NCBI GenBank assembly: GCA_021813435.1
Contig: JAKAKR010000004.1
Location: 120,972-184,971 of the forward strand
DNA length: 64,000 nt
Origin: Nanobdellota archaeon
Lineage (GTDB): Archaea; Nanobdellota; Nanobdellia; Woesearchaeales; UBA9642
Direction: 5' to 3'
In this document: in pieces, positions 28,129 through 55,805 of the stretch
Layout: each line of letters starts with the position of its first letter
How positions within the stretch are numbered: position 1 is the stretch's first letter
Translations under genes and position numbers: made by a program
Notes under the pieces: model-generated
Database searches by the model: none
Seen by the model: only the letters and a program-made list of their open reading frames with translations
What the model was told of the DNA's origin: nothing

Positions 28129-28244
28129 GATGCACCTCGTTTGTTCATTTTTTGCGTAACAGCTCTGGCAATAGTGTCGATCTCCATTGAACGATAACGC
28201 CTAATAGATATCACTGCTAAGTGAATAGTAATATAAATATTCGC

Positions 28245-28275: not shown

Positions 28276-28296
28276 CTTGAATGCTCTTGCAGCACC

Positions 28297-29055: not shown

Positions 29056-29109
29056 CAAAACAATACACAAACTATATAAATACACTTTACGATGATCGAT
29101 GAATAAGAG

Positions 29110-29925: not shown

Positions 29926-29930
29926 AATTT

Positions 29931-30203: not shown

Positions 30204-30345
30204 ATTCTTGTGCGTGATATAGATGATGATGAATGTCATGTTAAAATGGAGCGAAGGATGTTTATATAGTTAACGTAAATCGATTTATATCTTATTAACC
30301 CTACTTATTAACAACATTTTTAAATTTGTTATCTTCATAAAAATC

Positions 30346-30864: not shown

Positions 30865-30900
30865 TTTTATTTTAATGATTTTATTTTCACTTGTTGATTC

Positions 30901-31632: not shown

Positions 31633-31734
31633 GTATTTCTCTACAGTGCGTGCATATTTAAATATGTTGGTTTTTTTAATCAACAAAAATTTATATATTA
31701 TAGTTACCACGTAAAAGTAGTTTAAAACAAAGAG

Positions 31735-38249: not shown

Positions 38250-38984
38250 ATGCTTAAACTCTACAACACGCTTACGCGTACGAAAGAAGAATTCAAACCG
38301 ATTCATGCAGGAAAGGTCGGTATGTATACCTGCGGCCCGACCGTGTATTATTTTGCGCATATCGGAAATCTTCGCGCATATCTCTTTGAAGATATCCTTA
38401 AGCGTGTTCTTGAATATAATAAATATCAAGTCAATCATGTCATGAACATCACTGATGTCGGCCATCTTACAAGTGACGCTGATGAAGGCGAAGATAAGAT
38501 GCTGAAAGGCGCAAAGCGTGAGGGAAAGAGCGTCTGGGAGATTGCAAAATTCTATGAGGAAGCATTCTTTGCAGACCTACGGAAATTACACATCATTTAT
38601 CCATCAATTACATGCCGCGCAACAGAACATATTCCAGAAATGATTGCATTAATCAAACGCATTGAGCATAATGGTTACACCTACATTGCGAATGGTAATG
38701 TATATTTTGATATTGCTAAATTTAAGCATTATGGCGACCTTGCACGATTGAACCTTGACGAACTCAAAGCAGGAGCAAGAATTGCTGTCGATGAACATAA
38801 GCATAATCCACAGGACTTTGTCTTATGGTTCACTAAATCAAAATTTGATAATCAGGAGATGAAATGGGATGCCGTTTTTGAATTTACTCTTACAGATGAA
38901 GAATATGAGAAGCTAAAAGAGTTTGCAACCACAAGCAAAAACGTAGATATCATTCACACAGAAGAGGTTGAAAATGATATCTAA
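38250..38984 (+). CDS. cysS: cysteinyl-tRNA synthetase, N-terminal fragment (HIGH motif, catalytic domain first half)
   Basis: MYTCGPTVYYFAHIGNLRAY (CGPTVY + HIGH-type motif), FVLWFTKSKFDNQEMKWD region; CysRS homology stops at ~38870 (KWD), remaining 38 codons are insertion-derived. Confidence 0.85.
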   Translation: MLKLYNTLTRTKEEFKPIHAGKVGMYTCGPTVYYFAHIGNLRAYLFEDILKRVLEYNKYQVNHVMNITDVGHLTSDADEGEDKMLKGAKREGKSVWEIAKFYEEAFFADLRKLHIIYPSITCRATEHIPEMIALIKRIEHNGYTYIANGNVYFDIAKFKHYGDLARLNLDELKAGARIAVDEHKHNPQDFVLWFTKSKFDNQEMKWDAVFEFTLTDEEYEKLKEFATTSKNVDIIHTEEVENDI

Positions 38985-39901
38985 ACATTTATGCAAAGGT
39001 GGTTGCGGTAATCCTGCTTCTCATAAGGGATGGTGTAAGATTAAATGGAGATCTGGCAAAAAATTTGGTGTAGACTGTCCAGTAATTGAAGCAAAAAGAG
39101 CTAAATCACTTTCATCATTTAGAACTAGAGAAGCAAAATTAGGTAAAAATCCTATGCAAAATCCTAAAATATGTAAGAAAAATCATTCCTTGGCAAGAAA
39201 TAGAAAAGCTGCTGAAACTTTGAAACAATTAGGTGAAAAAGGCTTATTACCGCAGCAGACAGAAAACAAAGAGCTAAAAGAAAAAAGAAGACTTAAAAAC
39301 CAAAAGGCTCTTCAGAAGATGTGGAAAGAGGGCAGGCACCCTTTACAATCTAAATCTAAAGAAGAACTTAACATAATTAGGAAAAAAATATCCAACACAC
39401 TAAAGGATTTAGCAGACATGGGAGAGCTTCCTGTACAGAATTTTAGTCAAGAAAAGAAGAGATCAATTGCGAAAAAAGTCTCTGAAAAGTTAAGAGAAGG
39501 AATTAGAACTGGGAGAATTAAGCTGTCTCCCGGATGGAAGAAAGTCGCATATAAAGACAAAATTTTAAGATCTAATTGGGAAAAGGAAACAGCCCAATTT
39601 TTAGATGCTCATAAAATACATTGGGAATACGAATCTTTAATTTTGCCATATTACGATACTTCTAGAGATAGAGTGGCGTATACAATTCCCGATTTTTATT
39701 TACCGAAATATCATGTAGTTATTGAAGTTAAAAGCAATGGTTTAATAAATTCTGTACAGACTAAAGATAAGATGAGTGGAATAACTAATTTAGGCTATAG
39801 AACATTTCTGTTCGGTAAAAGACAAATCAAACTAATGAAGAATGAAAACATCACCATTATTAAGGCGATAAAAAATGAAAAAAGTTAAAGTAAAAATGAC
39901 T
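38871..39901 (+). mobile_element. ~1 kb insertion splitting cysS, carrying a PD-(D/E)xK nuclease gene (homing-endonuclease-like element)
   Basis: CysRS homology interrupted between KWD (38862-38870) and GYPGWH (from 39902); the three ORFs are in three different frames with short overlaps. Confidence 0.6.
38968..39888 (+). CDS. Zn-ribbon + Lys-rich linker + PD-(D/E)xK nuclease (free-standing homing-endonuclease-like)
   Basis: [16 protein letters not shown] Cys/His cluster; C-terminal IPDFYLP...VIEVKS = PD...ExK nuclease signature; Lys-rich and AT-rich. Confidence 0.6.
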
Positions 39902-40666
39902 GGATATCCGGGCTGGCATATTGAATGTTCAGCTATGAGCATGAAATATCTTGGCGAGCATTTTGATATCCATTGCGGCGGGATAGACCATATTCCAGTC
40001 CATCATACAAATGAGATTGCGCAATCAGAAGCTGCGACTGGAAAGAAATGGGTCAATTATTGGATGCATAATGAGTTCCTTGTCATGGACAAGGGAAAAA
40101 TGTCAAAGTCTGCAGGCGGGATATTGACTATTGCAACACTTGAAAAAGAGGGGTATGATCCAGTTGATTACCGCTATCTCACCCTCAATACACAATATCG
40201 CATACCCTTGACATTCAGTTATGAATCGCTTGCTGCAGCACAGAATGCGTTTAAGAACCTGAAGAATAAGATTGTTGAATACAAAAAAGATACTTCTGCA
40301 ATTGAGGATGGACATGTAAAAAATATGGATGAATACCGTGCTGATTTTCTCGAATCCATCAATGACGATCTCAACATGCCCAAAGCACTTGCAGTATTAT
40401 GGAATGTCATTACAGATAAGACATTAAATAATCATGAAAAATATGTGCTCGCACTAGAATTTGATAAAATCTTTGGATTAGGATTTGAACATCTCGTTGA
40501 GGAACAGATTGAAATCCCGAACGATATCCAGAAGATCATTGACGAACGCATACATGCACGAAAGGCTAAGGATTGGAAGAAATCCGACGAACTACGCGAT
40601 TTGTTGAAATCAAAAGGATACGCCGTCGATGATATTGCGCAAGGATCAAAGGTGAAAAAGATCTGA
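39875..40666 (+). CDS. cysS: cysteinyl-tRNA synthetase, C-terminal fragment (KMSKS motif, anticodon-binding domain)
   Basis: [42 protein letters not shown]; own ATG (MKKVKVKMT leader) overlapping nuclease stop. Confidence 0.85.
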
Positions 40667-40685: not shown

Positions 40686-40823
40686 ATGACTACCTGCATC
40701 AATAAATCAAAAAACGAGAAAAACTGTCCCTGCAAGGATACCTCGTGCGAAAATCATGGCATCTGCTGTGAATGCATCGCCTACCATCGCTCGACCAGAA
40801 GCAAGCCTGCGTGCATGCGATAG
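40686..40823 (+). CDS. 45-aa cysteine-rich micro-protein (8 Cys)
   Basis: Not in the ORF track (<60 aa); manual translation MTTCINKSKNEKNCPCKDTSCENHGICCECIAYHRSTRSKPACMR; sits directly upstream of the hydrogenase operon. Confidence 0.4.
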   Translation: MTTCINKSKNEKNCPCKDTSCENHGICCECIAYHRSTRSKPACMR

Positions 40824-40948
40824 TGCAGTGCATCAATTATTTTCTTTTTAATACCTGCTTTCTTTTTTGCTACAGTGGAAATATTTATAAACAATAGTGC
40901 AGGCTAGATACTACTTTGTAAATCGCATGCAAATCAAAAAGAGGTCAT

Positions 40949-41413
40949 ATGCCTGCTGACGTGAATGATCTAAAGCTTGTTGAATCCATTCTCAAAAAAT
41001 ATTCGCGAAAAGAGGATACTGTTGCAGCACTGCAGGAATTGCAGCAGACATTCGGATATCTTGAAAGAGGCCATCTTGAACTCCTGGCAAAGCAACTTTC
41101 CCTGCCGCTCGTCCACATCACCGGCGTTGCCACATTCTACACCCAATTCAAGTTCACGCCTAAAGGAACATACCATATCAGCATCTGTCGGGGAACTGCC
41201 TGTCATGTCAAGAATTCAGAGACACTCCTCAAACATGTGGAAAGAAAATTGAACATCAAGGCCGGAGAGATCACGACAGACAAGAAGATCAGCCTAGAAT
41301 GCGTCAATTGCATCGGTGCATGCGCAAAAGCGCCGGCAATGATGATCAATGAAAAAGTCTACGGGAACCTTGACGAGAAAAAGATCGACATGATCATCCA
41401 TTCACTTGAATAA
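40949..41413 (+). CDS. hydC: [FeFe]-hydrogenase subunit HydC (NuoE-like thioredoxin-fold [2Fe-2S] protein)
   Basis: ISICRGTACHVKNSE ... CVNCIGACAKAP four-Cys NuoE pattern. Confidence 0.85.
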   Translation: MPADVNDLKLVESILKKYSRKEDTVAALQELQQTFGYLERGHLELLAKQLSLPLVHITGVATFYTQFKFTPKGTYHISICRGTACHVKNSETLLKHVERKLNIKAGEITTDKKISLECVNCIGACAKAPAMMINEKVYGNLDEKKIDMIIHSLE

Positions 41414-41460
41414 TTCATTCGAATAATACGCGATAGACTCATACATAAGACCATACTTCC

Positions 41461-43251
41461 ATGACACCCATCACTGCACTTGCAGACCTCAAAAAAGGGC
41501 ATGAAGCACTCACCTGTGATCGGATTACAGTCGGGCTTGCAACATGCGGGATATCTGCAGGAGCAGACAGGACACTTGCAGCATTCCAGGCAGCAAATCT
41601 TCCGCTCATCATCGAGAATGTCGGATGCCTGGGGAACTGTTATGCTGAACCCATTGTGACTGTCCGGCAGGACGGTAGCACCGCAATCTATGGTCACGTA
41701 ACCGAAGATAAAGTCCAGAAAATCCTTGATGCCATAAAAACTAAAACAATCTGCAAAGAATTATTCCTTGGACGCACTCTTGAAGAAATCGATTTCTATA
41801 AGATTCAGAAACGGTTGCTCCTTGCAAACTGCGGAAAAATAAACCCGCTTGACATTGACCAATACGTCGCAACCGGAGGGTACGACGGGCTTGCAAAGGC
41901 GCTTCGCAAGAAACCGCAGGAAATCATCGAAGATGTGCTTGCAAGCGGATTGCGTGGCAGGGGCGGCGCTGGATTTCCTACGGGACAGAAATGGAGACTT
42001 ATCGCAGTAAAGACCGGAAAAAAGATCCTTGTCTGCAATGGTGACGAGGGAGATCCCGGAGCATTCATGAACCGTACAGTCATGGAGTCTGATCCCTTCA
42101 AACTCATCGAGGGGATGACGATTGCAGCATATGCGATCGGCAGTGATGAAGGAATAATCTATACCCGCGCAGAATACCCGCTTGCAGTAAAGACCCTGCG
42201 CTCGGCAATCACCATCGCAGAATCGCACAACCTTCTTGGAAAAAATATTCTTGGCATTGAAGGATTCAATTTTAACCTGCGCATCGTCATGGGCGCAGGA
42301 GCGTTTGTGTGCGGTGAAGAGACTGCGCTCATGAATTCAGTCATGGGACTGCGCGGACAGCCGCATTACAAGCCGCCGTATCCAGCTGACAAGGGAATCT
42401 ATGGATACCCGACAAACATCAATAATGTAAGTACATTATCATTTGTCCCGCTTATCATGTCCATGGGCGCCAAGGAATTTGCAAAAATCGGAAGCGAAAA
42501 AAGCAAAGGCACTGCAGTACTCTGTCTGACAGGAAAAATAAACAGGACAGGAGTCATTGAAGTCCCTATGGGAACGCCACTGCGCGAGATCATCTTTGGA
42601 ATTGCCGGAGGACCACCGCAGGGAACAACATTCAAGGCAGTGCAATGCGGAGGCCCTGCGGGAGGATGCGTGAGCGAGAAATACCTTGACCTTCCCGTCG
42701 ATTATGAATCACTCCTCTCAATCGGGGCAATGATGGGATCCGGAGGACTTGTTGTCCTCAACAGCGATTCCTGCATGGTTGATGTCGCAAAATTCTTCAT
42801 GAGTTTCACCCGCAGTGAGAGTTGCGGCAAGTGCACACCCTGCCGTGAAGGAACAACACGGATATGGGAGATACTGGATAAGATCACCAAAGGCCTCGGG
42901 ACACCTAAAGATATTGAAACACTCAAATCATTGTCGCAGTATGTAAAAGAAAACAGCTTATGTGGCTTGGGGCAGGCTGCCCCAAACCCCATCCTTACGA
43001 CCCTAGCGCAATTTGCAGACGAATACCGTGTCCATATTGAACAGAAGGAATGTCCTAGTCACTCCTGCAGAAACCTCGTCCATTACCGTATCAATGAGAA
43101 ATGCACGGGTTGCGGGAATTGCGCAAGACATTGCCCGGTCCATTGCATTGCCGGACGATTAAAAGAAAAACACGTCATCGACCAATCAGTCTGTGTGCGC
43201 TGCGGCGCATGCTATGAGAATTGCGCATTTGACGCAATCGACAAAGGATAA
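41461..43251 (+). CDS. hydB: [FeFe]-hydrogenase subunit HydB (NuoF-like; FMN/NADH-binding, Fe-S)
   Basis: N-terminal [2Fe-2S] domain, GRGGAGFPTGQKW (FMN), GEETALMNS (NADH), CGKCTPCREG [4Fe-4S], C-terminal 2x[4Fe-4S] ferredoxin (CTGCGNCARHCP, CVRCGACYENC). Confidence 0.9.
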   Translation: MTPITALADLKKGHEALTCDRITVGLATCGISAGADRTLAAFQAANLPLIIENVGCLGNCYAEPIVTVRQDGSTAIYGHVTEDKVQKILDAIKTKTICKELFLGRTLEEIDFYKIQKRLLLANCGKINPLDIDQYVATGGYDGLAKALRKKPQEIIEDVLASGLRGRGGAGFPTGQKWRLIAVKTGKKILVCNGDEGDPGAFMNRTVMESDPFKLIEGMTIAAYAIGSDEGIIYTRAEYPLAVKTLRSAITIAESHNLLGKNILGIEGFNFNLRIVMGAGAFVCGEETALMNSVMGLRGQPHYKPPYPADKGIYGYPTNINNVSTLSFVPLIMSMGAKEFAKIGSEKSKGTAVLCLTGKINRTGVIEVPMGTPLREIIFGIAGGPPQGTTFKAVQCGGPAGGCVSEKYLDLPVDYESLLSIGAMMGSGGLVVLNSDSCMVDVAKFFMSFTRSESCGKCTPCREGTTRIWEILDKITKGLGTPKDIETLKSLSQYVKENSLCGLGQAAPNPILTTLAQFADEYRVHIEQKECPSHSCRNLVHYRINEKCTGCGNCARHCPVHCIAGRLKEKHVIDQSVCVRCGACYENCAFDAIDKG

Positions 43252-43285
43252 AAAATTGACGCTTTGAATACTGTCATAAGAAACT

Positions 43286-45028
43286 ATGGCATCCCCTGAA
43301 CATCCCCAAAAAGTGAAGATAACACTCAACGATGAAATCGTATGGTGCGATCCCAATGCGTATATCATAGATATCGCGCGAAACAATAACATCTATATCC
43401 CGCACTTTTGTTATCATGAACGATTGGAACGCACGGCAAACTGCCGGCTCTGCGTCGTCGAAATCGAGATCGGAGGGAAAAAACGCATCATGACATCCTG
43501 CAACCTCAAGCCGCAGGAAGGAATGATCGTCAACACCCATACCCCGAAAGTCCTTGAGGCGCGCAGGGTCAATATTGAACTGCTTCTTGCAAACCATGAC
43601 TTGAACTGTCCGACCTGCGCAAAGAACCTGCATTGCAAACTCCAACGCTACTCGGGCGAACTCATCGTCAAGGAAACGCCATTTACAGGCAAACGACGCA
43701 ATGTGCCTGTCGATGAATCAAGCCCCTCGATTCGCCGGGACAACAATAAATGCATCCTCTGCGGCAGGTGCATCAAGATGTGCGGTGATGTACAGACCGT
43801 GAATGCAATCCAGCAGCAGTTCCGCGGATTTGAGACGCTGGTCTCCTGCGCATTCAATGAAGGACTTGGCGAGAGCAGCTGCGTCAACTGCGGTCAATGC
43901 GTGATTGCCTGCCCGACCGGGGCATTGACTGAGCGCAGCGACATCCCGCATGTCATTGATGCATTGAATGATCCCCATAAGATTGTCATTGCGCAGACTG
44001 CGCCATCAATTCGCGCAACACTCGGAGAATGCTTTGGGATGAATCCCGGAACAAATGTTACCGGAAAAATGGTTGCTGCACTGAAAAAATTAGGATTTGA
44101 AAAAGTGTTTGATACTGACCTTGCTGCAGACATCACTATTGTCGAGGAAGCATCGGAATTCATCAAACGCCTGAATGCGAACGAGAACTTGCCGATGATC
44201 ACGACCTGCTGTCCGGCATGGATAAAATTCGGCGAGCAATTCTTCTATGATGAACTCAGCCACATGTCGACCTGCCGGAGCCCGCAGGCAATCATGGCAT
44301 CACTCATCAAGACGTATTATGCCGAAAAAGCAGACCTTGACCCTCAGCGGATAGTGCTGGTTGACATCATGCCCTGCACTGCAAAAAAATTCGAGATCCT
44401 CAGACCAGAATTCGCAGGAGAAGCAGATTATGTCTTAACGACTGTCGAACTCGGAAAACTCATCAAGGAGATGAATATCGACTTTGAACACCTCGAGCCT
44501 GCACGTTTTGACAATCCGCTCGGCGAGAGCACTGGCGCAGGAGCAATATTCGGACATACAGGTGGGGTTATGGAAGCAGCACTGCGTACAGTTGCAGACT
44601 GGCTTGAGAACAAGAACTTCAAACATATTGATTACCAAGCCATTCGGGGCATGGAGACACTCAAAGAAGCAACAGTTCACATCGATGGGATGGAGATCAA
44701 TCTTGCAGTCGTCCATACCTTGGGCGAAGCGCGCAAACTCATGGAACAGATCCGCAGTGGCACTTGCAAATACCACTTCATTGAGATCATGGCATGCTAC
44801 GGTGGATGCATCGGTGGCGGAGGGCAACCTGCACCAACTGAGCGGTTTGATGAAGTCTTAAAAAAACGCGTTCAGGCGCTCATCACTGAGGATCTGCACA
44901 AGGAGATCAGAAAATCACACAAGAACCCTGCAGTCAACAAACTCTACGACGAGTATCTCGGCGATATCGGTGGAGAGCGGGCGCATAAATTGTTGCATAC
45001 GAGCTATCAGAGAAGAGAGTTTAAGTAG
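43286..45028 (+). CDS. hydA: [FeFe]-hydrogenase catalytic subunit HydA (with N-terminal [2Fe-2S] and [4Fe-4S] domains)
   Basis: H-cluster signatures MITTCCPAWIKF (TSCCPxW), MPCTAKKFE (MPCxxKxxE), EIMACYGGCIGGGGQP (ExMACxxGCxxGG). Confidence 0.9.
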   Translation: MASPEHPQKVKITLNDEIVWCDPNAYIIDIARNNNIYIPHFCYHERLERTANCRLCVVEIEIGGKKRIMTSCNLKPQEGMIVNTHTPKVLEARRVNIELLLANHDLNCPTCAKNLHCKLQRYSGELIVKETPFTGKRRNVPVDESSPSIRRDNNKCILCGRCIKMCGDVQTVNAIQQQFRGFETLVSCAFNEGLGESSCVNCGQCVIACPTGALTERSDIPHVIDALNDPHKIVIAQTAPSIRATLGECFGMNPGTNVTGKMVAALKKLGFEKVFDTDLAADITIVEEASEFIKRLNANENLPMITTCCPAWIKFGEQFFYDELSHMSTCRSPQAIMASLIKTYYAEKADLDPQRIVLVDIMPCTAKKFEILRPEFAGEADYVLTTVELGKLIKEMNIDFEHLEPARFDNPLGESTGAGAIFGHTGGVMEAALRTVADWLENKNFKHIDYQAIRGMETLKEATVHIDGMEINLAVVHTLGEARKLMEQIRSGTCKYHFIEIMACYGGCIGGGGQPAPTERFDEVLKKRVQALITEDLHKEIRKSHKNPAVNKLYDEYLGDIGGERAHKLLHTSYQRREFK

Positions 45029-45055
45029 AAGCAGTAATTGTTCATGTTAGAGTAT

Positions 45056-46165
45056 TCATGATTTGATGGATTCAATATTTTTCTTTGAATGGTCTCTTAA
45101 ATATTTATTATATTCTTTTGTTGATAAATTATTAGAGAGAATGTCTGTGTATGGCGTTAAGATTCTCTGCCGTAGTTTGTAGCTGTTAGCGTGTTTTATG
45201 TGTGCTATCCATCCTTCGATGGTGTCGTAGACTTTATCGTATTCAATTTGTTTGTTTTGATATTTCGTAATGAGCAGTGATAATTTCTTTCTGAATTTTC
45301 TGCTGTTTCTTTTTGCAAGGAGTTTGTGATGTGGGTAGATTCTTATTCCTAAGAATCCTACGCCACGTTTTAGGAATGATATTTTTGTTTTTTCTGGATG
45401 AAGCTCTAGGTGCAGGTTTTCTTTAAGGAATTGATTAATTTGTGTTTTATAATCTTCGAGTTTTTCAAGGTGTTCGTCCATGATTACAAAATCATCAACA
45501 TATCTGATGTAATAGTTTACGCGGAGTTTGTGTTTGATAAACCAATCTAATTCATCAAGGTAAATATTTGCAAAAAATTGGCTTGTGAAATTTCCGAGCG
45601 GCATCCCTTTCCTTCTGTTTCTTGTTTGGTGGTTGCTTAGGATTATTCTTATGAGGTTGATGAGTTTTTTATCCTTAATCTTTCTTTGAAGTAAGGTTAT
45701 AAGAATATTGTGGTCTACATTGTCAAAGTAGTGTTTGATATCCGCTTTAAGTATATAACAATTTCTTGTGTTGTTTTGTGATGCTTTCTGTTTGAATTCT
45801 TCGAATCGTTTTATTGCTTTGAGTGTTCCTTTTCCTTTGCGGTTTGCGTAAGAATCGTGGATGAATGTTTTATCGAATAGTGGTTCGATAATATTGCAGA
45901 TTGCGTGGTGTACGATTCTGTCTCTAAAATCCGATTTACTGATTTTTCTGGTCTTTGGATCTCTAAGAATGAATGTTTCTAGAGGTCTTGGCTCGTATAG
46001 TTCGAGTTCTAACTCTTTTTGCAACTGAACAAGATTCTCTTTAAGATTGTTTTCAAATTCTATGACGTACGGTTTTAGTGTCTTATGTTTACGCGCCTTT
46101 TTATACGCAAGGTAGAGGTTATCTTTTGAACAGATTAACGGGTAGAGTTGTTTGTATCTCTTCAT
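45056..46165 (-). CDS. diversity-generating retroelement (DGR) reverse transcriptase
   Basis: RT motifs ILKADIKHYFDNVDH, GMPLGNFTSQFFANIYL (DGR-typical [I/L]GxxxSQ instead of QGxxxSP), YVDDFVI; N-terminal LYLAYKKARKHK...FRDRIVHHAI typical of DGR RTs; template repeat 22 nt upstream of its start. Confidence 0.9.
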   Translation of the reverse strand: MKRYKQLYPLICSKDNLYLAYKKARKHKTLKPYVIEFENNLKENLVQLQKELELELYEPRPLETFILRDPKTRKISKSDFRDRIVHHAICNIIEPLFDKTFIHDSYANRKGKGTLKAIKRFEEFKQKASQNNTRNCYILKADIKHYFDNVDHNILITLLQRKIKDKKLINLIRIILSNHQTRNRRKGMPLGNFTSQFFANIYLDELDWFIKHKLRVNYYIRYVDDFVIMDEHLEKLEDYKTQINQFLKENLHLELHPEKTKISFLKRGVGFLGIRIYPHHKLLAKRNSRKFRKKLSLLITKYQNKQIEYDKVYDTIEGWIAHIKHANSYKLRQRILTPYTDILSNNLSTKEYNKYLRDHSKKNIESIKS

Positions 46166-46187
46166 GAATATGATGCCTTGACAGGGG

Positions 46188-46279
46188 GTTATTCCAACGA
46201 AGCGGGCATTGTTATTGAGATTGTTGTTGCCATTAAGATTGCCGTTGTTGTTGCTGTTGTTGACAAAGAGGACCCGCCC
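46188..46279 (-). repeat. DGR template repeat (TR)
   Basis: 92-nt near-identical copy of 46758..46849; on coding (minus) strand rich in AAC/AAT codons (GRVLFVNNSNNNGNLNGNNNLNNNARFVGI in target frame). Confidence 0.9.
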
Positions 46280-46526
46280 CGATCTTTAGCCCTTTTGCTG
46301 TAACTCTTCACCATTGCTTCAAGATTTCGAAACTGATTCTACTCATTGTCGCAATTGTATGCTCAAAAATCGTAGATTTTTGGCACGCCAGAAATCCGCG
46401 ATTTCTCAGCGTTTTATGACGCTTAATAAGACGCCTTAGCAAAAGAGCGTGTAGCCCCGTACCCGCGCTTAATTCAGGTAAGTCAAGGCGGTGAGAAAAA
46501 TAAAAAGAATATTAAAAAGATTTCTA

Positions 46527-46568
46527 TTTTAGAAACAGTGGTTGCGTGTGCTTCGGCTGTTTCTAAAA
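46527..46568 (-). terminator. stem-loop (12-bp stem) followed by T-tract on minus strand, probable terminator of DGR target gene
   Basis: TTTTAGAAACAG ... CTGTTTCTAAAA inverted repeat with 18-nt loop ~45 nt downstream of target stop; T-rich tail on minus strand. Confidence 0.45.
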
Positions 46569-46612
46569 TTCAGAAGACAAAACACATATTATCTGAATAA
46601 TGTTGTCTTCTT

Positions 46613-47500
46613 TTATTTACGCGTTAGCATATTGTAAACCGTTGGTGATACTAGGTCCTGTCGGATAACCACAATTCCGTTACCTGCATCAATGCCTTTA
46701 CCGACTAGTGTTTCCAGTGGAGACTTGATTTTTTGCGCGCTGGCTACGCCAGACGACGGTACCCCAACGAAGCGGGCATTGTAATTGAGAAGGTTGTAGC
46801 CATTAAGATTGCCGTTGTCGTTGCTGTTGTCGACAAAGAGGACCCGCCCATAAGGTACGTCATGTAAATCAGTTGAGTGATATACTCCGATGTTTTTTCC
46901 TACAACTTTCTCGTGCTGTTCCAAATATTTTTCTGCGCGTTTTTCTCCACCAATAAATGGAATGACTTGTGGATGTTTCATTGCATCAGAGATGCTTATT
47001 GTTCCACTTGTAGAATTTTTCAATGAATCGTAATCAATGACAAAAACATTAACACCGTCTTCTTTATTTAGTAATTGCTGAAATAATTTTTTTGGATAAT
47101 ATCCTGCGCCGTTGATGAGCGGATTTTTCTTGTCAACTATTGCTTTCTGAATATTTTTTGGATCAGAAAAATAATTATCTATGTGCGCATAGACTACAAC
47201 TTTGCTTCCGCCTTTAGTTGTTCCAGTTACTCGAACACTTGGAGCGCTATACCCTTTATTCCAGATAAATGAATTCTTATCAGAAACACTGCGCATATCC
47301 ATTATCTTAGGAATAAATGCAGCACGATAACCTTCGTTTTGGCATTCAGCGAGTGCTACAGGCAAAGGATTTTGAAGACCATATTTTTCTACGTCTTCTT
47401 TTGATACTGAATCTCTATAAAAGATTTTACCCATTACAGTCATTGGAATTTGAATATCTTCAGTCATTTTGATCCTCCGTACGAGTTGTGCGTAAAACAA
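46613..47500 (-). CDS. DGR variable (target) protein, family unknown
   Basis: Contains VR (residues ~213-244 of 295: GRVLFVDNSNDNGNLNGYNLLNYNARFVGV); no signal peptide evident; 48-aa tail after VR. Confidence 0.8.
   Translation of the reverse strand: MFYAQLVRRIKMTEDIQIPMTVMGKIFYRDSVSKEDVEKYGLQNPLPVALAECQNEGYRAAFIPKIMDMRSVSDKNSFIWNKGYSAPSVRVTGTTKGGSKVVVYAHIDNYFSDPKNIQKAIVDKKNPLINGAGYYPKKLFQQLLNKEDGVNVFVIDYDSLKNSTSGTISISDAMKHPQVIPFIGGEKRAEKYLEQHEKVVGKNIGVYHSTDLHDVPYGRVLFVDNSNDNGNLNGYNLLNYNARFVGVPSSGVASAQKIKSPLETLVGKGIDAGNGIVVIRQDLVSPTVYNMLTRK
46758..46849 (-). repeat. DGR variable repeat (VR) inside target gene
   Basis: Differs from TR at 9 positions (TR 46189, 46192, 46193, 46213, 46221, 46222, 46228, 46249, 46261), every one a T in TR on the + strand = A on coding strand, replaced by G/C/A/T. 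Confidence 0.9.
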
Positions 47501-47620
47501 TCGTATTTACTAAGGTATATTTAGTCTTATTTAAATAGTTTACGATTTTATTGTTACTTGAAAGTGATAAATTAATCAATTTTCACAATATTTAAATAGT
47601 ATAACTGAGATATACTAATT

Positions 47621-48172
47621 ATGGCAAGCCCAAGCAAAGAGAATCAGGTATTAACACTCATCCTCGAGAGCAGCCCACTAAAGAAATGGCATTTTGAAGA
47701 GATCATGAAAGAGGCAAAAGTCACTCGGCTTGTTGCAAACAAGTGGCTCAAGAAATATCTTGCAGAAAAACTTATCATCCGCGTAAAAGAAAAAGGACGA
47801 TTCCCATATTACACTGTAGAGTCGAACAATCCAGTATATTACTCAGCAAAAAGAATATATATGCTCGAGCGATTGCACAGCAGCGGATTATTATCTCGAT
47901 TATTATCATTGACTGGCATAAAAACCATTATCTTGTTTGGAAGCGCAGTAAGAGGTGATTGGTATGCGGGTTCAGATATCGACATCTTCATGCTCGGAAA
48001 TCTTCCGGATTTTGATAAAAAAATTTATGAACAACAACTGCATACCCAGATAGAGTTGCATGTGTTCAAGGACAAAAGAGAGATACATGCAGTAAAAACA
48101 GGACTCATTGCAAACATCATCAACGGTTATGTCCTCAAGGGACAGATCCAAGACATCGTCGAGGTTGCATGA
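47621..48172 (+). CDS. minimal nucleotidyltransferase (MNT) with N-terminal wHTH-like region
   Basis: ILFGSAVRGDWYAGSDIDIF = GSxxRG...SDxDh nucleotidyltransferase motif. Confidence 0.75.
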   Translation: MASPSKENQVLTLILESSPLKKWHFEEIMKEAKVTRLVANKWLKKYLAEKLIIRVKEKGRFPYYTVESNNPVYYSAKRIYMLERLHSSGLLSRLLSLTGIKTIILFGSAVRGDWYAGSDIDIFMLGNLPDFDKKIYEQQLHTQIELHVFKDKREIHAVKTGLIANIINGYVLKGQIQDIVEVA

Positions 48173-48637
48173 ATGAAATTAATAATTGACAATCTTGACA
48201 GCACCTATAAATCATGCATGTCTAACGGCATGATCAAAGAGAAAACTATTGATATCGAACTCATCCGTTCACTTAAGCTTGTCGCAGAACAAGGAATACG
48301 ATTCATCAACAGCAAGTCAAAAGACATTCCAAAACACAGTACTGACTGGACATTTGTATTCAGGGATTATTATGAGGCATTACGCGGGCTTATCGAAGCA
48401 TATATACTTTTTGATGGGATCGTTGCAGACAATCACCAATGCAAGAACGCATATGTCTGCTTCAGGCATCCAGAACTTGAACTCGATTGGGCATTTCTTG
48501 AAACAATCAGATTAAAACGTAATGCGATAAATTATCGTGGGCAATTATTAAAATATGATGATTGGAAATTATTAAAATTAAAATTTGGATTGCATATCAA
48601 TGCGCTGAAAAATGAGATTGAGAAAAAATTAGGGTAG
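48173..48637 (+). CDS. HEPN-domain protein (partner of MNT; putative toxin)
   Basis: Start overlaps MNT stop (TGAATG); helical protein with RLKRNAINYRG resembling HEPN Rx4-6H motif (Y in place of H). Confidence 0.55.
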   Translation: MKLIIDNLDSTYKSCMSNGMIKEKTIDIELIRSLKLVAEQGIRFINSKSKDIPKHSTDWTFVFRDYYEALRGLIEAYILFDGIVADNHQCKNAYVCFRHPELELDWAFLETIRLKRNAINYRGQLLKYDDWKLLKLKFGLHINALKNEIEKKLG

Positions 48638-48773
48638 CATCGCGGATTGTGCGCAGGTGATGCTAGTGATATCGTTGGAGTAATAAGCAAGCAATAAATA
48701 ATCTTCATGTGTATCATACTTTCAGTATTACAGTAAACATATAAAGAATGTGAGTATTATTGTATGACTTGAG

Positions 48774-49343
48774 GTGAACATCATGCCAGAACATGAATAT
48801 GTTTATATCAGGAAATTATTTTATCAAAGTATATTTCAAGTGAAGAATCTTGAAGAGCATATCCAGATGATATTCTATTCAGTGCTTGCATTCTTCATCC
48901 CCTTTTTTCTTGGGCATCCCCAATGGGCTGTGGGCGTCATTGTAAATACGGCACTCATCCTTGGCGCTACATACCTACGCGGATATAAGGTATTGCCAGT
49001 CATTTTACTCCCCAGTATCGGCGTACTGATCGCAGGACTCATCTTTGGTCCATTGACAATGTATCTGGTGTATCTTATACCATTCATCTGGATCGGAAAC
49101 GCGCTCTACGTGTACTGCCATCGGCATTTCATGTTCAAGAAATGGAATAGTCTTGCGTCCATTGGCGTAACGTCAGTGATCAAATCCGTATTCATTGCAA
49201 TCGGCGCAATCATCCTCTATGTATTCGGCGTCATTCCTGCAGCACTCCTCATACCCATGAGCATCCTGCAACTCGGGACAGCGATTGGCGGCGGAATCAT
49301 TGCACTCGGGATTGTAAAAGGAAGGAATGCATTGCAGAATTAG
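48774..49343 (+). CDS. integral membrane protein (ECF-transporter S-component-like?)
   Basis: ~5-6 hydrophobic helices; no soluble domain; family assignment uncertain. Confidence 0.4.
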   Translation: MNIMPEHEYVYIRKLFYQSIFQVKNLEEHIQMIFYSVLAFFIPFFLGHPQWAVGVIVNTALILGATYLRGYKVLPVILLPSIGVLIAGLIFGPLTMYLVYLIPFIWIGNALYVYCHRHFMFKKWNSLASIGVTSVIKSVFIAIGAIILYVFGVIPAALLIPMSILQLGTAIGGGIIALGIVKGRNALQN

Positions 49344-49951
49344 TCTTTGAGCCACGCAGTGATCTCTCTGATTGTTCGCGCATTATTGCTGTGAAGGCAC
49401 ACATGCATCCCTAATGCTTCTGCAGTAGCGATATTTGCAGGATTATCGTCAACAAGCATGCACTCCTGCGGTTTTGCGCGGGTTTTCTTGAATGCAATCC
49501 TAAAGAACTTTGCATCAGGTTTTCCGATATGATACTGATGTGAACTGATAACATAATCTGCCCATGAACCAAAATCAAGCAGGGTCATATACTTATCTAT
49601 ATTTGTCTGGTAGTTGTTGGTGAATATGCATATGGTTGCGCGACCGCTGATCTTCTTAAAGAAATTGACGAGTTGAATATTATACGACTTGGAATCATAC
49701 ATGGTCGCATAATAATCTTTAATAGTTATCGGATGATAATCCTTGTTTTTGCGCTTCATTTGCGTATTTATGCGATCAATAGCATCCTGGAATGTTTTCT
49801 TGCCACTGTCCATTTCGGGAGCAATGCCCCATATTGCATGGTAACGTATTGTGGGATCGACGCCGAATCTTTTCTCAAGTCGTTTGATCCCCCGCCGGAG
49901 ATCCTGTTTTCTCATCAAGACTTCACCGATATCAAGAAAAATGCATTTCAT
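49340..49951 (-). CDS. HAD-superfamily hydrolase
   Basis: MKCIFLDIGEVLM (DxG motif I), LVDDN (motif IV-like); start moved to MKCIF (track ORF extends upstream through alternative start). Confidence 0.6.
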   Translation of the reverse strand: MKCIFLDIGEVLMRKQDLRRGIKRLEKRFGVDPTIRYHAIWGIAPEMDSGKKTFQDAIDRINTQMKRKNKDYHPITIKDYYATMYDSKSYNIQLVNFFKKISGRATICIFTNNYQTNIDKYMTLLDFGSWADYVISSHQYHIGKPDAKFFRIAFKKTRAKPQECMLVDDNPANIATAEALGMHVCLHSNNARTIREITAWLKD

Positions 49952-50006
49952 CGATTGTAGAGGAATGATTGCTATTAAAAATGTTTTGGATAGAAAGAAA
50001 GGGGCG

Positions 50007-50222
50007 TTATTTTTCCCCACGCATCTTTGCATCAATCTTGGTATTGTCCTGGATCTCCTGCTCGCGCAAGTGATCGATAGTCTTGAGCAAAACGTCAATC
50101 TCACAGATTGCGCCGTAAATCTGGTGCTGGCGCGCCGGGTCAAGCTTCGGGTTCTTTTCAAGAAGATCAATAAGATTCGCTTTCCGCTTTTCGTAGAGTG
50201 CGCGTAATTGTCTGAGTGGCAT
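50007..50222 (-). CDS. small hypothetical protein
   Basis: 71-aa helical ORF. Confidence 0.3.
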   Translation of the reverse strand: MPLRQLRALYEKRKANLIDLLEKNPKLDPARQHQIYGAICEIDVLLKTIDHLREQEIQDNTKIDAKMRGEK

Positions 50223-51267: not shown

Positions 51268-51592
51268 GCTTTTTCTGGGAAGATTTATTATATAAATTTT
51301 TCGATTATTAATTATATACTAAAGTTAAATACTTATATTGTAAGTAAAGTTAATTAGTTTAGTAATAACTTAAACATTTTGTGCGTGTTTATAGAAAAAA
51401 ATGTTTTTTTTACTGTCTTATCTGATTTTTTTTGAGCAAAAAATGCCTTAAAAATCATAATATTTATAAACCTTGCTCGCAAGAATGGAAATAGTGTGTA
51501 TTAACGTGCACTACCAGCTAAAATAGTAGGTTTGTAAACAGAATGTATGTTTTAGGGTGTGGAGAAAAAAAGAGGCGTGTCAAGGTAGAGAG

Positions 51593-52870
51593 ATGAGTAA
51601 TCTTAAGGTATTAATGTTTGGATGGGAATTCCCACCGTTCTTCTCAGGCGGGCTCGGTACAGCTTGCTATGGGCTCACAAAGGGATTGCATGAACAGAAT
51701 GTGGATGTCACGTTCGTCATGCCGCAAGGACCAGAAAGCATGCATGCTGAGCATGTTAATCTTATCATCGCTTCAAACATGAAACAGTACCGCATCAAAT
51801 TGACTGCAGTCCCAAGCCTACTCCAACCATATCTTTCTGCAGCAGAGTACACTACAGCATATGAACGGCATGCGGAAAAATTGCAGAATGAATCATTCTC
51901 CGGAAAACTGTACGGGAAAAATATCTATGAGGAAGTCTACCGATTCTCAAAAATCGCAGGACGCATAGCGCAAAGCGAGGAATTCGACATCATCCACTGC
52001 CATGACTGGATGACATTTCCTGCAGGGATCGAGGCAAAACGCATGACCGGAAAACCGCTCATCGTCCATGTCCATGCAACTGAATTCGACAGAACCGGAG
52101 GCAATGGAGTCAACCAGTATGTCTATGACATCGAGCGATCTGGCATGGAATACGCTGATAAAATCATCGCGGTATCACAATTCACCAAAAACAAGATCAT
52201 GGAATGTTATGGCATCCCTGAAGAGAAAATCACTGTAGTGCATAACGCAGTCGATTTTCCCCATGTTGAGCCGCATCATATCAAGGCAAGTGAAAAAGTT
52301 GTGCTGTTTCTCGGGCGATTAACACTCCAGAAAGGACCTGATTATTTCATCGAGGCAGCAAAAAAAGTTCTGGATTTTGATCCGCATGTCACATTCATCA
52401 TTGCAGGTTCAGGGGATATGGAGGCGCGGCTCATTGATCGCGTCGCGCAGTTGGGTATCGGCAACAAGGTCTTGTTTGCAGGATTCCTCAAGGGCGCAGA
52501 TGTTGATCATGCGTATCGTATGGCAGACCTTTATGTCATGCCTTCTGTGAGTGAGCCATTCGGCATAACACCACTTGAGGCATTGCGCAACCGTGTTCCG
52601 GTCATTATCTCCAAACAATCCGGAGTCTCTGAAGTATTGAAGAACAGCCTGAAGGTCGATTTCTGGGATGTTGATGAACTTGCAAATAAGATCATTTCTG
52701 TCCTGAATTATCGCGCCTTGCATCACGAACTTACGACGCATGGCGCGCTTGAGGTGCAGACATTCAACTGGAATGTCCCTGCACAAAAATGTGTTGCAGT
52801 CTACAAGGATGTGCTTGCGCGTCCTCCAGCAACATCTGCGATGATGGAGGTGCTTGCACGCGCAAGATGA
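51593..52870 (+). CDS. GT4-family (GT-B, retaining) glycosyltransferase, glycogen-synthase-like
   Basis: KVLMFGWEFPPFFSGGLG N-terminal motif, FLGRLTLQKGPD and MPSVSEPFGITPLEAL (E-x7-E) motifs. Confidence 0.75.
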   Translation: MSNLKVLMFGWEFPPFFSGGLGTACYGLTKGLHEQNVDVTFVMPQGPESMHAEHVNLIIASNMKQYRIKLTAVPSLLQPYLSAAEYTTAYERHAEKLQNESFSGKLYGKNIYEEVYRFSKIAGRIAQSEEFDIIHCHDWMTFPAGIEAKRMTGKPLIVHVHATEFDRTGGNGVNQYVYDIERSGMEYADKIIAVSQFTKNKIMECYGIPEEKITVVHNAVDFPHVEPHHIKASEKVVLFLGRLTLQKGPDYFIEAAKKVLDFDPHVTFIIAGSGDMEARLIDRVAQLGIGNKVLFAGFLKGADVDHAYRMADLYVMPSVSEPFGITPLEALRNRVPVIISKQSGVSEVLKNSLKVDFWDVDELANKIISVLNYRALHHELTTHGALEVQTFNWNVPAQKCVAVYKDVLARPPATSAMMEVLARAR

Positions 52871-52876
52871 TACACC

Positions 52877-54148
52877 ATGGTCAATATCTGCCTCTACTTC
52901 CATGTCCACCAGCCGTACCGTATGAGAAAGTATTCTGTATTTGACATCGGACATAATTTGCACTATTTTGACGAGGAAAAAAACCGTGAGGTACTGCGCA
53001 AGGTCGCAACGAAATGTTATCTTCCGGCAAATAACATCATGCTTGAACTTATCAATAAATATAAGGACACTGACCGGAAATTCAAGGTATCTTATTCAAT
53101 CACTGGCGTCATCCTTGAACAATTCGAGAGATACGAACCTGCAGTCCTGGAGTCATTCAGGAAGCTTGCGGCAACAGGTTGCGTGGAATTTGTTTCAGAG
53201 ACTTATTATCACTCGCTTGCATTCCTCTATTCTAAGGATGAATTCAAATCACAGGTCGAGATGCATCGGCAAAAGATCAAATCACTTTTCGGGCAGGAGC
53301 CGACTGTCTTTCGCAACACGGAACTCATCTACAACAACGAGTTGGGCAAATTTCTTGAGTCTATGGGATTTACTGCAACACTCACTGAAGGCGCGGATCA
53401 CATCATGGTCTGGCGCAATCCCAATTATGTCCACCGGATACAGGATGGGACCATGCGGCTTCTTCTCAAGAATTACAAGCTCAGCGATGATATCGCATTC
53501 CGTTTCGGACAAAAATCCTGGAATGAATACCCTCTTAGCGTCGATAAATACGCCCAATGGATCCATGCAAGCGATGGGCATGCAGTGAACCTTTTTATGG
53601 ATTATGAGACATTCGGCGAGCACCAGTGGGAAGACACCGGGATATTCGAATTTCTCAGGTCACTTCCGGACGCGCTCTTCAAGAATCCTGGAACGACGTT
53701 TTTGACTGTCTCTGAACTTGCGCGATATGAGCCGGTCGGCGAGCTGGACATTCATAATTTTATTTCCTGGGCAGACATCGAACGCGACCTTTCTGCATGG
53801 AAGGGAAACCATATGCAGGACTCAGCGCTTAGTGAACTTTACGCCATTGAGACTGCGGTCAAGGAATCACGCAATGCTGCACTCCTCGAGGATTGGCGCA
53901 AGCTCACGACCAGCGATCACTTCTATTATATGTGCACAAAATACTTCAATGACGGCGATGTCCACAAATATTTCAATCCCTACGAGACGCCCTACGAATC
54001 CTATATCAATTTCATGAATATCCTCAATGATGTTGTTCACCGCCTGAATCGAATCAATCGGGAAAAACGGCTTGCAATAGAAATGCAGCAGGGCTACCAT
54101 GCCCCCCGGCCATCGATCACTGAAAAACCCGTCAATATCATCCAATGA
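52877..54148 (+). CDS. glycoside hydrolase family 57 enzyme (alpha-glucan acting: amylase / 4-alpha-glucanotransferase / branching-type)
   Basis: N-terminal LYFHVHQPYR GH57 signature, catalytic regions ETFGEHQWE. Confidence 0.8.
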   Translation: MVNICLYFHVHQPYRMRKYSVFDIGHNLHYFDEEKNREVLRKVATKCYLPANNIMLELINKYKDTDRKFKVSYSITGVILEQFERYEPAVLESFRKLAATGCVEFVSETYYHSLAFLYSKDEFKSQVEMHRQKIKSLFGQEPTVFRNTELIYNNELGKFLESMGFTATLTEGADHIMVWRNPNYVHRIQDGTMRLLLKNYKLSDDIAFRFGQKSWNEYPLSVDKYAQWIHASDGHAVNLFMDYETFGEHQWEDTGIFEFLRSLPDALFKNPGTTFLTVSELARYEPVGELDIHNFISWADIERDLSAWKGNHMQDSALSELYAIETAVKESRNAALLEDWRKLTTSDHFYYMCTKYFNDGDVHKYFNPYETPYESYINFMNILNDVVHRLNRINREKRLAIEMQQGYHAPRPSITEKPVNIIQ

Positions 54149-54245
54149 TTCCACTATAGATTATTCCACTATAATCCCGCTAACGATATTCCTGTTTTCA
54201 GGACAGCATTCAGAACTGTTTCAATAAAAAAAGAGGTGAGACGTC

Positions 54246-54767: not shown

Positions 54768-54870
54768 ATGCATGTATGTGAATGAGATAGAACCAGGGTT
54801 TGAAACGAGTATCATGATTTGAAAAGAATAAAACGGTTTGAAAAATAAAAGGGTTTGAAACGAATGGATA

Positions 54871-55764: not shown

Positions 55765-55805
55765 ATCAAGAACTACTGAGTCAAGAAATACTAAAAAGAA
55801 AATAT

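Follow-up and report, generated by a model that had tools for sequence, protein, structure and literature searches.

Group A3 [FeFe] hydrogenases in archaea

Trimeric [FeFe] hydrogenases of group A3, with their maturases missing, have already been published from Woesearchaeota (Huang et al. 2021, PMC8421398; Greening et al. 2024, PMC11216029). Nine archaeal phyla are now known to contain [FeFe] hydrogenases, and within the archaea, the Woesearchaeales among them, A3 is the most frequent type (PMC11216029, PMC8421398). The view in an earlier note on this DNA that these enzymes are rare in archaea is outdated. The A subgroups rest on genetic organisation rather than on phylogeny (PMC8421398). 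As a class, the woesearchaeal A3 enzymes support some DPANN archaea as H2-producing fermenters, and the papers that we read report no assay of an archaeal A3 enzyme.

Two described types of HydABC serve as references. The bacterial bifurcating complexes are represented by those of T. kivui (8a6t), A. woodii (7q4v/8a5e) and Thermotoga maritima (7p5h). The non-bifurcating type of Syntrophus/Syntrophomonas likewise mounts a NuoF/NuoE-like diaphorase module on a group A HydA, but its HydB lacks the extra Fe-S domains and has T/S-x-K/S/A and Y at the sites that tell the two types apart. The markers of bifurcation are A/E-x-M in the NADH site, F instead of Y near the FMN, and GGPSG (Losey et al. 2020, PMC7311640).

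The operon described here is one more well-assembled example of an already described class and is not new in kind. With the published DPANN A3 loci (PMC8421398, PMC11216029) it shares the hydC-hydB-hydA order, the P1/P2/P3 motifs, the membrane gene hyd6TM, the missing HydEFG and a sugar-fermenting context. Its differences are local: hyd6TM is split off by an inserted block of a diversity-generating retroelement (DGR) and a nucleotidyltransferase, the module lies beside a cysS split by an endonuclease, and a syntenic relative is without it. What this locus adds is hyd6TM displaced by the DGR, the RibU-like predicted fold of its product, and the placement of the module in a 9.2-kb segment that the relative lacks. 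We read it as the native operon of a Woesearchaeota (DPANN) archaeon for a group A3, HydABC-type hydrogenase that would run in the confurcating direction, to H2, in a fermenting cell; we put the probability of this reading at about 0.85.

Organisation of the operon

The window, i.e. the whole 64-kb stretch of DNA that was analysed, contains the following features of the module:

40877..40942 (+), putative archaeal promoter and Shine-Dalgarno-like site upstream of hydC, read from the sequence
40949..41413 (+), hydC, 154 aa, NuoE-like thioredoxin-fold [2Fe-2S] subunit (Pfam, PDB, motifs)
41461..43251 (+), hydB, 596 aa, NuoF-like FMN/NADH diaphorase subunit (Pfam, PDB, motifs)
43286..45028 (+), hydA, 580 aa, catalytic [FeFe] hydrogenase subunit, M3-type (Pfam, NCBIfam, PDB, motifs)
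48783..49343 (+), hyd6TM, 186-aa conserved membrane protein, with its own TATA-like element and Shine-Dalgarno site

The three open reading frames coincide exactly with the hydC-hydB-hydA operon that the earlier note had placed at 40949-45028. They lie on the same strand, separated by 47 nt (hydC-hydB) and 34 nt (hydB-hydA), and hydA is thus contiguous with a NuoF-like hydB and a NuoE-like hydC, as in the group A3/HydABC organisation. The E-values of the Pfam matches are so extreme that a chance origin is ruled out. A TATA-like element, "atatttataaa", about 60 nt upstream of the hydC ATG marks a putative archaeal promoter, and a Shine-Dalgarno-like "aagaggt" precedes the gene. Genes for glycogen and sugars lie near the operon, as do TrmB regulators. 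A gene for ferredoxin or for pyruvate:ferredoxin oxidoreductase is absent from the 64-kb window.

HydC matches 2Fe-2S_thioredx (PF01257, 1.6e-48), holds its [2Fe-2S] ligands at C80, C85, C121 and C125, and finds its top PDB match in T. kivui HydC (8a6t_C, 1.3e-36).

HydA combines Fer2_4, NADH-G_4Fe-4S_3, two Fer4, Fe_hyd_lg_C (PF02906, 2.8e-95) and Fe_hyd_SSU (7.3e-22). This corresponds to a [2Fe-2S] domain, a His-ligated [4Fe-4S] domain, a 2x[4Fe-4S] domain, the H-domain and a small-subunit-like C-terminus. The signature of group A HydA, which supplies the H-cluster cysteines, consists of P1 TSCCPxW, P2 MPCxxKxxE and P3 ExMACxxGCxxGGGQP. All three motifs announced for the 580-aa protein were located: P1 as TTCCPAW at 306, P2 as MPCTAKKFE at 362 and P3 as EIMACYGGCIGGG at 500. 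The objection that the H-cluster cysteines might fail on careful alignment is answered, as every one of them is there. The accessory clusters are of the M3 type, with ligands C42/C53/C56/C72 for the [2Fe-2S] cluster, H104-C108-C111-C117 for the His-ligated [4Fe-4S] cluster, and CILCGRCIKMC at 156 (C156..C166) and CVNCGQCVIAC at 199 (C199..C209) for the 2x[4Fe-4S] domain. HydA aligns end to end with its top PDB relative, T. kivui 8a6t_A (9.6e-176). It passes the NCBIfam model NF040763 for NADH-dependent [FeFe] hydrogenases, labelled "group A6" (797.9 bits, cutoff 765), and TIGR02512 (497 bits, threshold 406); with NF040762, the clostridial ferredoxin-hydrogenase, it scores 587.7 bits, under the cutoff of 900.

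HydB and electron bifurcation

HydB consists of Complex1_51K (1.2e-41), NADH_4Fe-4S (9.6e-33) and two C-terminal Fer4 domains. Its N-terminus is a thioredoxin-like 2Fe-2S remnant by Pfam, with cysteines C19/C29/C56/C60. The FMN motif GRGGAGFPTGQK, the NADH motif GDEGDPGAF, the N3-type [4Fe-4S] motifs CGKCTPCR and LCGLG, and CPSHSC are all found, and the C-terminal 2x[4Fe-4S] ferredoxin domain carries CTGCGNCARHC at 548 and CVRCGACYENC at 578. The NuoE-like and NuoF-like subunits that the earlier note had recognised are hence intact in their FMN/NADH motifs and Fe-S ligands. HydB also has both extra Fe-S domains of Bfu-type B subunits, the N-terminal [2Fe-2S] and the C-terminal 2x[4Fe-4S]. Its PDB matches are B subunits of the Bfu family: NfnB 9n5u (9.6e-200), A. 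woodii HydB (2.4e-183) and T. kivui HydB (1.6e-182). Residues 21-594 align with NfnB 9n5u_B and 9bov_B.

At the sites of Losey et al., two of the three bifurcation markers are present, A-F-M in GDEGDPGAFMNR and the F of GAGAFVCGEE, and the third is a variant, GGPAG in place of GGPSG. This S-to-A variant is common to most long archaeal HydBs. The altered motif could speak for an NADH-only hydrogenase that does not bifurcate, as in Syntrophus/Syntrophomonas. So could related archaeal loci (e.g. L017-L021), whose short HydBs show the non-bifurcating T-F-K/Y pattern; both types therefore exist in the lineage, and a single archaeal HydA clade includes loci with either. Such an assignment is nonetheless unlikely for the present complex: its HydB is the long form with both additional Fe-S domains, the residues in the NADH site and near the FMN are in the bifurcating-type state (PMC7311640), opposite to those of the non-bifurcating type, and its nearest structural relatives are Bfu-family enzymes. 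HydB bears most of the sequence signature of the bifurcating type. The proposal of a bifurcating-type HydABC holds up, with HydA passing NF040763, the HydABC of T. kivui and A. woodii as best solved relatives, and two of three markers in HydB.

All three subunits align over their full length with the bacterial bifurcating HydABC, with the same cluster ligands and FMN and NADH motifs. The window differs from these complexes in the GGPAG of HydB, the lack of neighbouring hydEFG, the archaeal host and an extra membrane gene; in addition, T. maritima HydA (645 aa) has an extra C-terminal domain that HydA of the window (580 aa) is without.

Analogy to the solved bacterial complexes suggests that HydB would bind NADH at its FMN and that electrons would be relayed by the [2Fe-2S] and [4Fe-4S] clusters of HydC and HydB, with the C-terminal 2x[4Fe-4S] domain of HydB as the ferredoxin-side branch. 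In HydA, four accessory clusters would conduct electrons on to the H-cluster, the presumed site of proton reduction. Hydrogenase activity, bifurcation and the direction of the reaction are our inference; during sugar fermentation the enzyme would work in confurcation, NADH + 2 reduced ferredoxin + 3 H+ -> 2 H2 + NAD+ + 2 oxidised ferredoxin, and reductant from glycolysis and pyruvate oxidation would be disposed of as H2.

Archaeal origin of the locus

The window contains archaeal flanking genes, namely Topo VI A/B, NurA, four TrmB, a RIO kinase and a KH/Krr1-type protein. Among named sequences, those nearest to the hydrogenase and to CysRS belong to Woesearchaeota, and the CysRS fragment shares its cluster with a sequence of that name. 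Flanks and relatives thus bear out the archaeal genomic context first proposed for the operon.

Since [FeFe] hydrogenases are mostly bacterial, the operon might be bacterial DNA brought in by a chimeric assembly or by mis-binning. A step in GC content fits this suspicion: in 2-kb windows it is about 0.36-0.37 directly beside the operon and about 0.49 across it. The step is, however, due to the flanks, which are foreign low-GC elements: the endonuclease ORF within cysS has a GC of 0.325 and an RSCU correlation of -0.02, and the DGR reverse transcriptase a GC of 0.337. In contrast, hydA and hydB (GC 0.49, GC3 0.50-0.57, RSCU correlation with the remaining window 0.80-0.82) resemble top6B, mgtE and glycogen synthase in composition. 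The operon fits the housekeeping genes of the window, which settles the comparison of codon usage and GC that had been called for.

Contig continuity was another point to check. The same HydA in the same synteny recurs on eight contigs from NCBI, ENA and Logan assemblies; five of the eight are 0.2-1 Mb in size, the longest being 549 kb. One replicate is DAIEQV010000002.1 (367 kb, NCBI GCA_027347435.1).

The phylogeny of HydA points the same way. In a neighbour-joining tree of 84 HydA sequences, that of the window groups with archaea only, in a clade of 34 with a bootstrap of 100. Its identity to sequences named as Woesearchaeota, Nanoarchaeota or Altiarchaeota is 56-76%; GTDB matches at 56-75% identity are archaeal MAGs without exception, while bacterial matches stay at or below 52%. 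For each of the three subunits, the nearest homologues come from archaeal MAGs. Because of the eight contigs, the matching composition, the all-archaeal clade and the low bacterial identity, we reject a mis-bin, a chimera or a recent bacterial transfer; an artefact of assembly or binning is very improbable. Flanks, relatives, composition and replicated contig all place the locus in the Woesearchaeota/DPANN.

Maturases and the radical-SAM gene

No match to HydE, HydF or HydG was found in the 64-kb window by tblastn at E <= 1e-3, with archaeal (L021) and bacterial queries, nor in Pfam/NCBIfam scans of window ORFs of at least 250 aa; hydE/F/G are not adjacent to the operon, as the earlier note had stated. 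Maturases are absent from 34 of the 35 archaeal hyd loci that we examined, the exception being L021, with hydG-hydE-hydF directly beside hydA. Among the 120 best HydG homologues, none could be assigned to this genome; one candidate, P0343, was dropped as bacterial.

The missing maturases, together with a close relative that dispenses with the operon and a full maturase set in only 5 of 130 archaeal genomes (PMC11216029), could mean that the intact genes yield no working hydrogenase in vivo, just an apo-protein without the [2Fe] subcluster, as a relic or in another redox role. We regard this as quite unlikely. All catalytic and ligand residues are kept across an archaeal clade diverged to about 56% identity, which argues for purifying selection, and in situ transcription of woesearchaeal A3 genes has been observed (PMC11606122). 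An active archaeal [FeFe] hydrogenase has been obtained heterologously from a closed genome without maturases, and cultured Asgard archaea make H2 without them (PMC11216029).

The locus touches the question of how the H-cluster is built in archaea without HydEFG, for which it provides a contiguous test case on a contig of 367-549 kb. The predicted fold of hyd6TM, the hydG-hydE-hydF of L021 and the presence of both HydB types in one HydA clade may help to answer it.

The radical-SAM gene at 62195-63247, with Radical_SAM and BATS domains, is the sole one found among the annotated window ORFs. Its description as a lone, distant BioB/HydE-like gene agrees with HydE as the closest solved relative of its product (E = 2.7e-13), though the protein belongs to another family: it passes the NF004911/PRK06267 equivalog model and not the HydE equivalog TIGR03956, and its motif is an odd CX4CX2C. 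We rejected the idea that it is a cryptic HydE or a stand-in maturase: it is an NF004911 member, gives no tblastn match to true HydE, and lacks homologues around the other hyd loci. We consider it unrelated to the hydrogenase, with a low residual probability of the contrary.

hyd6TM, a conserved membrane gene

The membrane gene hyd6TM is associated with archaeal group A [FeFe] hydrogenases, as published in 2021 and 2024 (PMC8421398, PMC11216029), and is the fourth conserved gene of the hydrogenase module. Here it sits 3.75 kb from hydA, with the DGR and nucleotidyltransferase block inserted between them. The protein is predicted to fold like an ECF-transporter S component, with the riboflavin transporter RibU as the closest match, but it is only 9-14% identical to such components (RibU 3p5n, 5kbw). 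Pfam and NCBIfam give no match for the window protein or its 43 homologues (44 family members), and a profile search, which returned only 778 cluster representatives, yielded no sequence bridge to known S-component families. No ECF partner module (EcfA/A'/T, ABC ATPase) occurs among window ORFs of at least 250 aa. Some hyd6TM homologues adjoin no hydrogenase.

Judging by its predicted fold, which is that of ECF S components binding vitamins or metals, hyd6TM probably supplies some cofactor. A more specific idea, which we offer as a long shot, is that it is a solitary ECF-type S component importing a cofactor for the hydrogenase of maturase-free DPANN archaea from the host or the environment. 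In the bold version this would be a [2Fe]-subcluster precursor or an iron species replacing HydEFG, in the tamer one riboflavin/FMN for HydB. If true, hydrogenase maturation in these symbionts would hinge on an imported cofactor, not on a biosynthetic pathway.

The surrounding segment

The module, hyd6TM included, lies within a 9.2-kb segment that is missing from the syntenic relative L084; the operon is therefore accessory, not core. We found neither boundary repeats of at least 10 nt around the segment nor an integrase, and rejected a mobile-element origin on these grounds.

A small Cys-rich ORF at 40686-40823 has a weak match to DUF6485. It was discarded as a hydrogenase accessory: L084, although devoid of hyd, conserves this DNA along with the cysS flank, and homologues of the ORF lie near only two other loci.

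The hyd module adjoins the cysS gene interrupted by the endonuclease insertion. An intron was rejected, with no Rfam group I/II match and junctions without bulge-helix-bulge-like pairing; from its sequence, cysS looks like a true gene split.

Subunits of the hydrogenase and type of HydB

Three ORFs on one strand encode the hydrogenase, at exactly the positions where an earlier note had placed a bifurcating-type HydABC:

40949-41413, + strand: hydC, 154 aa, thioredoxin-like [2Fe-2S] protein of NuoE/HydC type (Pfam)
41461-43251, + strand: hydB, 596 aa, NuoF-like FMN/NADH protein (Pfam)
43286-45028, + strand: hydA, 580 aa, full M3-type [FeFe] hydrogenase (Pfam)

Upstream of hydC, a TATA-like element can be read, as can a stretch resembling a Shine-Dalgarno sequence. 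Pfam domains of HydA comprise Fer2_4, NADH-G_4Fe-4S_3, two Fer4, Fe_hyd_lg_C (2.8e-95) and Fe_hyd_SSU; HydB is extended by a 2Fe-2S-type segment at its N-terminus and a 2x[4Fe-4S] domain at its C-terminus. All ligands of the three proteins were located by motif scan: the three H-cluster motifs at HydA positions 306, 362 and 500; in HydB, the motifs for FMN and NADH, the N3-type cluster and two CxxCxxCxxxC motifs; and in HydC, all four cysteines. HydA passes the NCBIfam model NF040763 ('NADH-dependent [FeFe] hydrogenase, group A6') with a score of 797.9 against a cutoff of 765, and stays below the threshold of the NCBIfam model for clostridial monomeric hydrogenases. For each subunit, the closest solved structures are those of electron-bifurcating HydABC complexes and other enzymes of the Bfu family.

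The ENA record of the same locus (L001, 9497-11251) contains a gene-calling artefact: HydA is shortened to 416 aa, and its N-terminal [2Fe-2S]/[4Fe-4S] region is overlaid by a spurious antisense ORF of 119 aa. At NCBI all 580 aa are annotated. This longer reading is the correct one, because the alignment to T. kivui HydA1 begins at residue 10.

Bifurcating HydB can be told from NADH-only HydB by sequence criteria (Losey et al., PMC7311640). HydB of the window possesses the extra Fe-S domains, its NADH site reads A-F-M, and near FMN it has F, not Y. The third marker, GGPSG, is present as GGPAG, a variant common to most long archaeal HydBs. With the extra domains and two of the three diagnostic markers, HydB is probably of the bifurcating type; together with the NF040763 score and the closest structures, its residue states, except for the GGPAG variant, bear out the trimeric bifurcating-type enzyme proposed in the earlier note.

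Related archaeal loci also contain a shorter HydB, about 366 aa long, that has neither the 2Fe-2S domain at the N-terminus nor the 2x[4Fe-4S] domain at the C-terminus and follows the non-bifurcating pattern, with T-F-K and Y at the diagnostic positions. It occurs in loci L017-L021, L023, L029, L034 and L066, as well as in the second operons of L012, L016 and L024; in three genomes, both operon types stand side by side. Both types of enzyme therefore exist within this archaeal clade.

Archaeal origin of the operon

The operon is flanked by genes for Topo VI A and B, NurA, four TrmB regulators, a RIO kinase and a KH/Krr1-type protein, as well as a class I aldolase-family gene and a THUMP methyltransferase. 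Identical HydA, HydB and HydC sequences recur on 7-8 contigs, five of them of 0.2-1 Mb, and the synteny is the same in all; one is the 367-kb contig DAIEQV010000002.1 (NCBI GCA_027347435.1). A comparison of composition, suggested in the earlier note, shows hydA and hydB to be like the housekeeping genes of the window with respect to GC, GC3 and codon usage (RSCU r about 0.8); off the pattern are an endonuclease ORF (r = -0.02) and the reverse transcriptase of a diversity-generating retroelement (DGR; r = 0.32). A step in GC that might suggest a chimera arises because low-GC foreign elements flank the operon on both sides.

Relatives of HydA were collected by scanning one genome per GTDB species, which gave 80 loci. 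Among these, matches of 56-75% identity come from archaeal MAGs only, labelled Woesearchaeota, Nanoarchaeota/Nanoarchaeia, 'archaeon' or, probably as a placeholder, 'uncultured Methanosarcinales'; bacterial HydA (Atribacterota, Clostridia) begin at ≤52% identity. A neighbour-joining tree was built from 84 HydA sequences, a HydA phylogeny having been proposed at the outset; it places the window HydA in a clade of 34 sequences, all of them archaeal, with a bootstrap of 100. Flanking genes, MAG identities and tree agree on the archaeal context claimed earlier. Replication of the contig, composition, archaeal relatives and the tree together exclude a chimeric assembly or a mis-binned bacterial fragment; the note's other refuting case, a HydA short of H-cluster cysteines, is excluded by the motif scan. 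We thus hold the operon to be a native archaeal HydABC of bifurcating type, with a probability of roughly 0.85; its activity and coupling, mechanism and maturation route we infer.

Many 'binchicken'/SRP co-assembly MAGs titled 'uncultured Methanosarcinales archaeon' (loci L004, L008, L014, L016-L019, L021 and others) bear Woesearchaeota-like hyd operons, and the Topo VI B fragment of L004 is 94% identical to that of the window. The title looks like a placeholder, not a real placement.

In several Woesearchaeota subgroups, [FeFe] hydrogenases of group A3 have been described as trimeric, with genes like nuoE and nuoF (Huang et al. 2021, PMC8421398). Archaeal [FeFe] hydrogenases are known from 130 genomes of 9 phyla, A3 being the commonest group, Woesearchaeales included (Greening et al. 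2024, PMC11216029), and woesearchaeal A3 genes are transcribed in situ (PMC11606122). Given these descriptions, the operon is a further representative of a class already in the literature: a correct rediscovery with little new in it. What the window adds is a hyd6TM gene apparently displaced by a DGR block and a hyd module that is accessory by comparison with a syntenic relative.

An accessory module apparently interrupted by a retroelement

The following features lie downstream of hydA:

45056-47500, - strand: complete DGR, directly after hydA
45056-46165, - strand: DGR reverse transcriptase, with a DGR-type LGNFTSQ motif
46194-46279: DGR template repeat
46281-46488: RT-16 RNA (Rfam)
46613-47500: DGR target gene, homologue of the nanoarchaeal variable protein AvpA (PDB 5ioo, 3.3e-59)
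46764-46849: DGR variable repeat
47621-48637, + strand: gene pair of a wHTH-nucleotidyltransferase, with MntA-like antitoxin and PADLOC PDC-M05A matches, and a 154-aa ORF
48783-49343: hyd6TM homologue

Template and variable repeats share 93% identity, and all six differences coincide with adenines of the template, read on the coding strand. The 154-aa ORF, without family match, abuts the nucleotidyltransferase gene at its 3' side; the two may form a toxin-antitoxin or defence pair travelling with the DGR insertion.

The name hyd6TM denotes an associated gene for an uncharacterised membrane protein of 4 to 6 helices (PMC11216029). Its homologues are found in 18 of the 35 archaeal loci and in none of the 45 bacterial ones; in all eight closest loci, the gene sits 21-109 nt downstream of hydA. 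In the window this distance is 3,755 nt, taken up by the DGR and the nucleotidyltransferase gene pair: the DGR appears to have been inserted between hydA and hyd6TM. The protein has no profile match to known families, and its profile search came to only 778 cluster representatives. Its likeness to ECF-transporter S components is at the level of the predicted fold only, and no ECF module was found in the window. A simple role in supplying flavin for HydB is not secure, since homologues also adjoin a minimal 276-aa HydA without HydB or sit away from any hydrogenase.

In L084, the syntenic relative without hyd genes, flanking genes are 76-84% identical to the window at the nucleotide level where aligned. 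It retains glyRS-lrp-methyltransferase-cysS on one side and the 70-, 111- and 236-aa genes with GT5 on the other. In place of the window's 9.2-kb segment (40790-50009), which holds hydCBA, hyd6TM and a HAD hydrolase along with the DGR, L084 has an unrelated 4-kb insert, and the hyd module is therefore accessory. Neither boundary repeats nor an integrase were found for the 9.2-kb segment. An uncalled 45-aa cysteine-rich ORF (40686-40823, + strand; MTTCINKSKNEKNCPCKDTSCENHGICCECIAYH...), with a weak DUF6485 match, is conserved in L084 together with the flank of cysS; homologues of it are found near the hyd operons of L020 and L023.

A low-GC insertion of 1,028 bp (38871-39898) breaks the cysteinyl-tRNA synthetase gene (38250-40666, + strand) into two ORFs that lie in different frames. 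The insertion replaces 12 nt (conserved SPWG) and contains a 306-aa PD-(D/E)XK/Holliday-resolvase-like endonuclease ORF. It gives the N-terminal half a new stop codon and the C-terminal half a new start codon; a close relative has an unbroken CysRS of 468 aa. The insertion matched no intron RNA model, and a search for bulge-helix-bulge pairing found none.

Maturases and the radical-SAM gene

All three maturases were reported in only 5 of the 130 archaeal genomes, and an alternative maturation route was proposed (PMC11216029). In L021, a related archaeal MAG contig (CAZSRD010000020.1), hydG-hydE-hydF directly follow hydA (4816-8508): HydG scores 541 bits with TIGR03955, HydE 341 bits with TIGR03956, and HydF 320 bits with TIGR03918, slightly below the cutoff of 325.6. 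Its HydA is 63% identical to that of the window; the locus also has hyd6TM and a short HydB of non-bifurcating type. With these archaeal maturases and those of bacterial loci as tblastn queries (E ≤ 1e-3), no HydE, HydF or HydG was found in the window, in keeping with the reported absence of adjacent hydE/F/G, or in archaeal loci other than L021. The archaeal HydG query retrieved many DPANN-labelled HydG (Woesearchaeota, Nanoarchaeota, Micrarchaeota). Together with L021, these suggest that archaeal maturases may be less rare than the 2024 figure.

One radical-SAM gene lies downstream of the glycogen-debranching gene:

62195-63247, + strand: protein with Radical_SAM and BATS domains

Its cluster motif is a non-canonical CX4CX2C (CSKADCKFC). 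The earlier description as BioB/HydE-like is fair, because HydE is the best solved relative (2.7e-13), followed by PylB and BioB. As a HydE equivalog, the protein is ruled out: it belongs to NF004911/PRK06267.

Glycogen and sugar genes occupy 51557-62129 (+ strand) and 25883-31710. The cluster contains GT4/GT5 starch-synthase-like, GH57, glycogen synthase, GalT-like, sugar-1-phosphate nucleotidyltransferase and debranching enzyme genes; upstream are a PfkB kinase, DeoC/LacD-family aldolases and several TrmB regulators. This gene content is consistent with a life of sugar fermentation, which would supply the hydrogenase.
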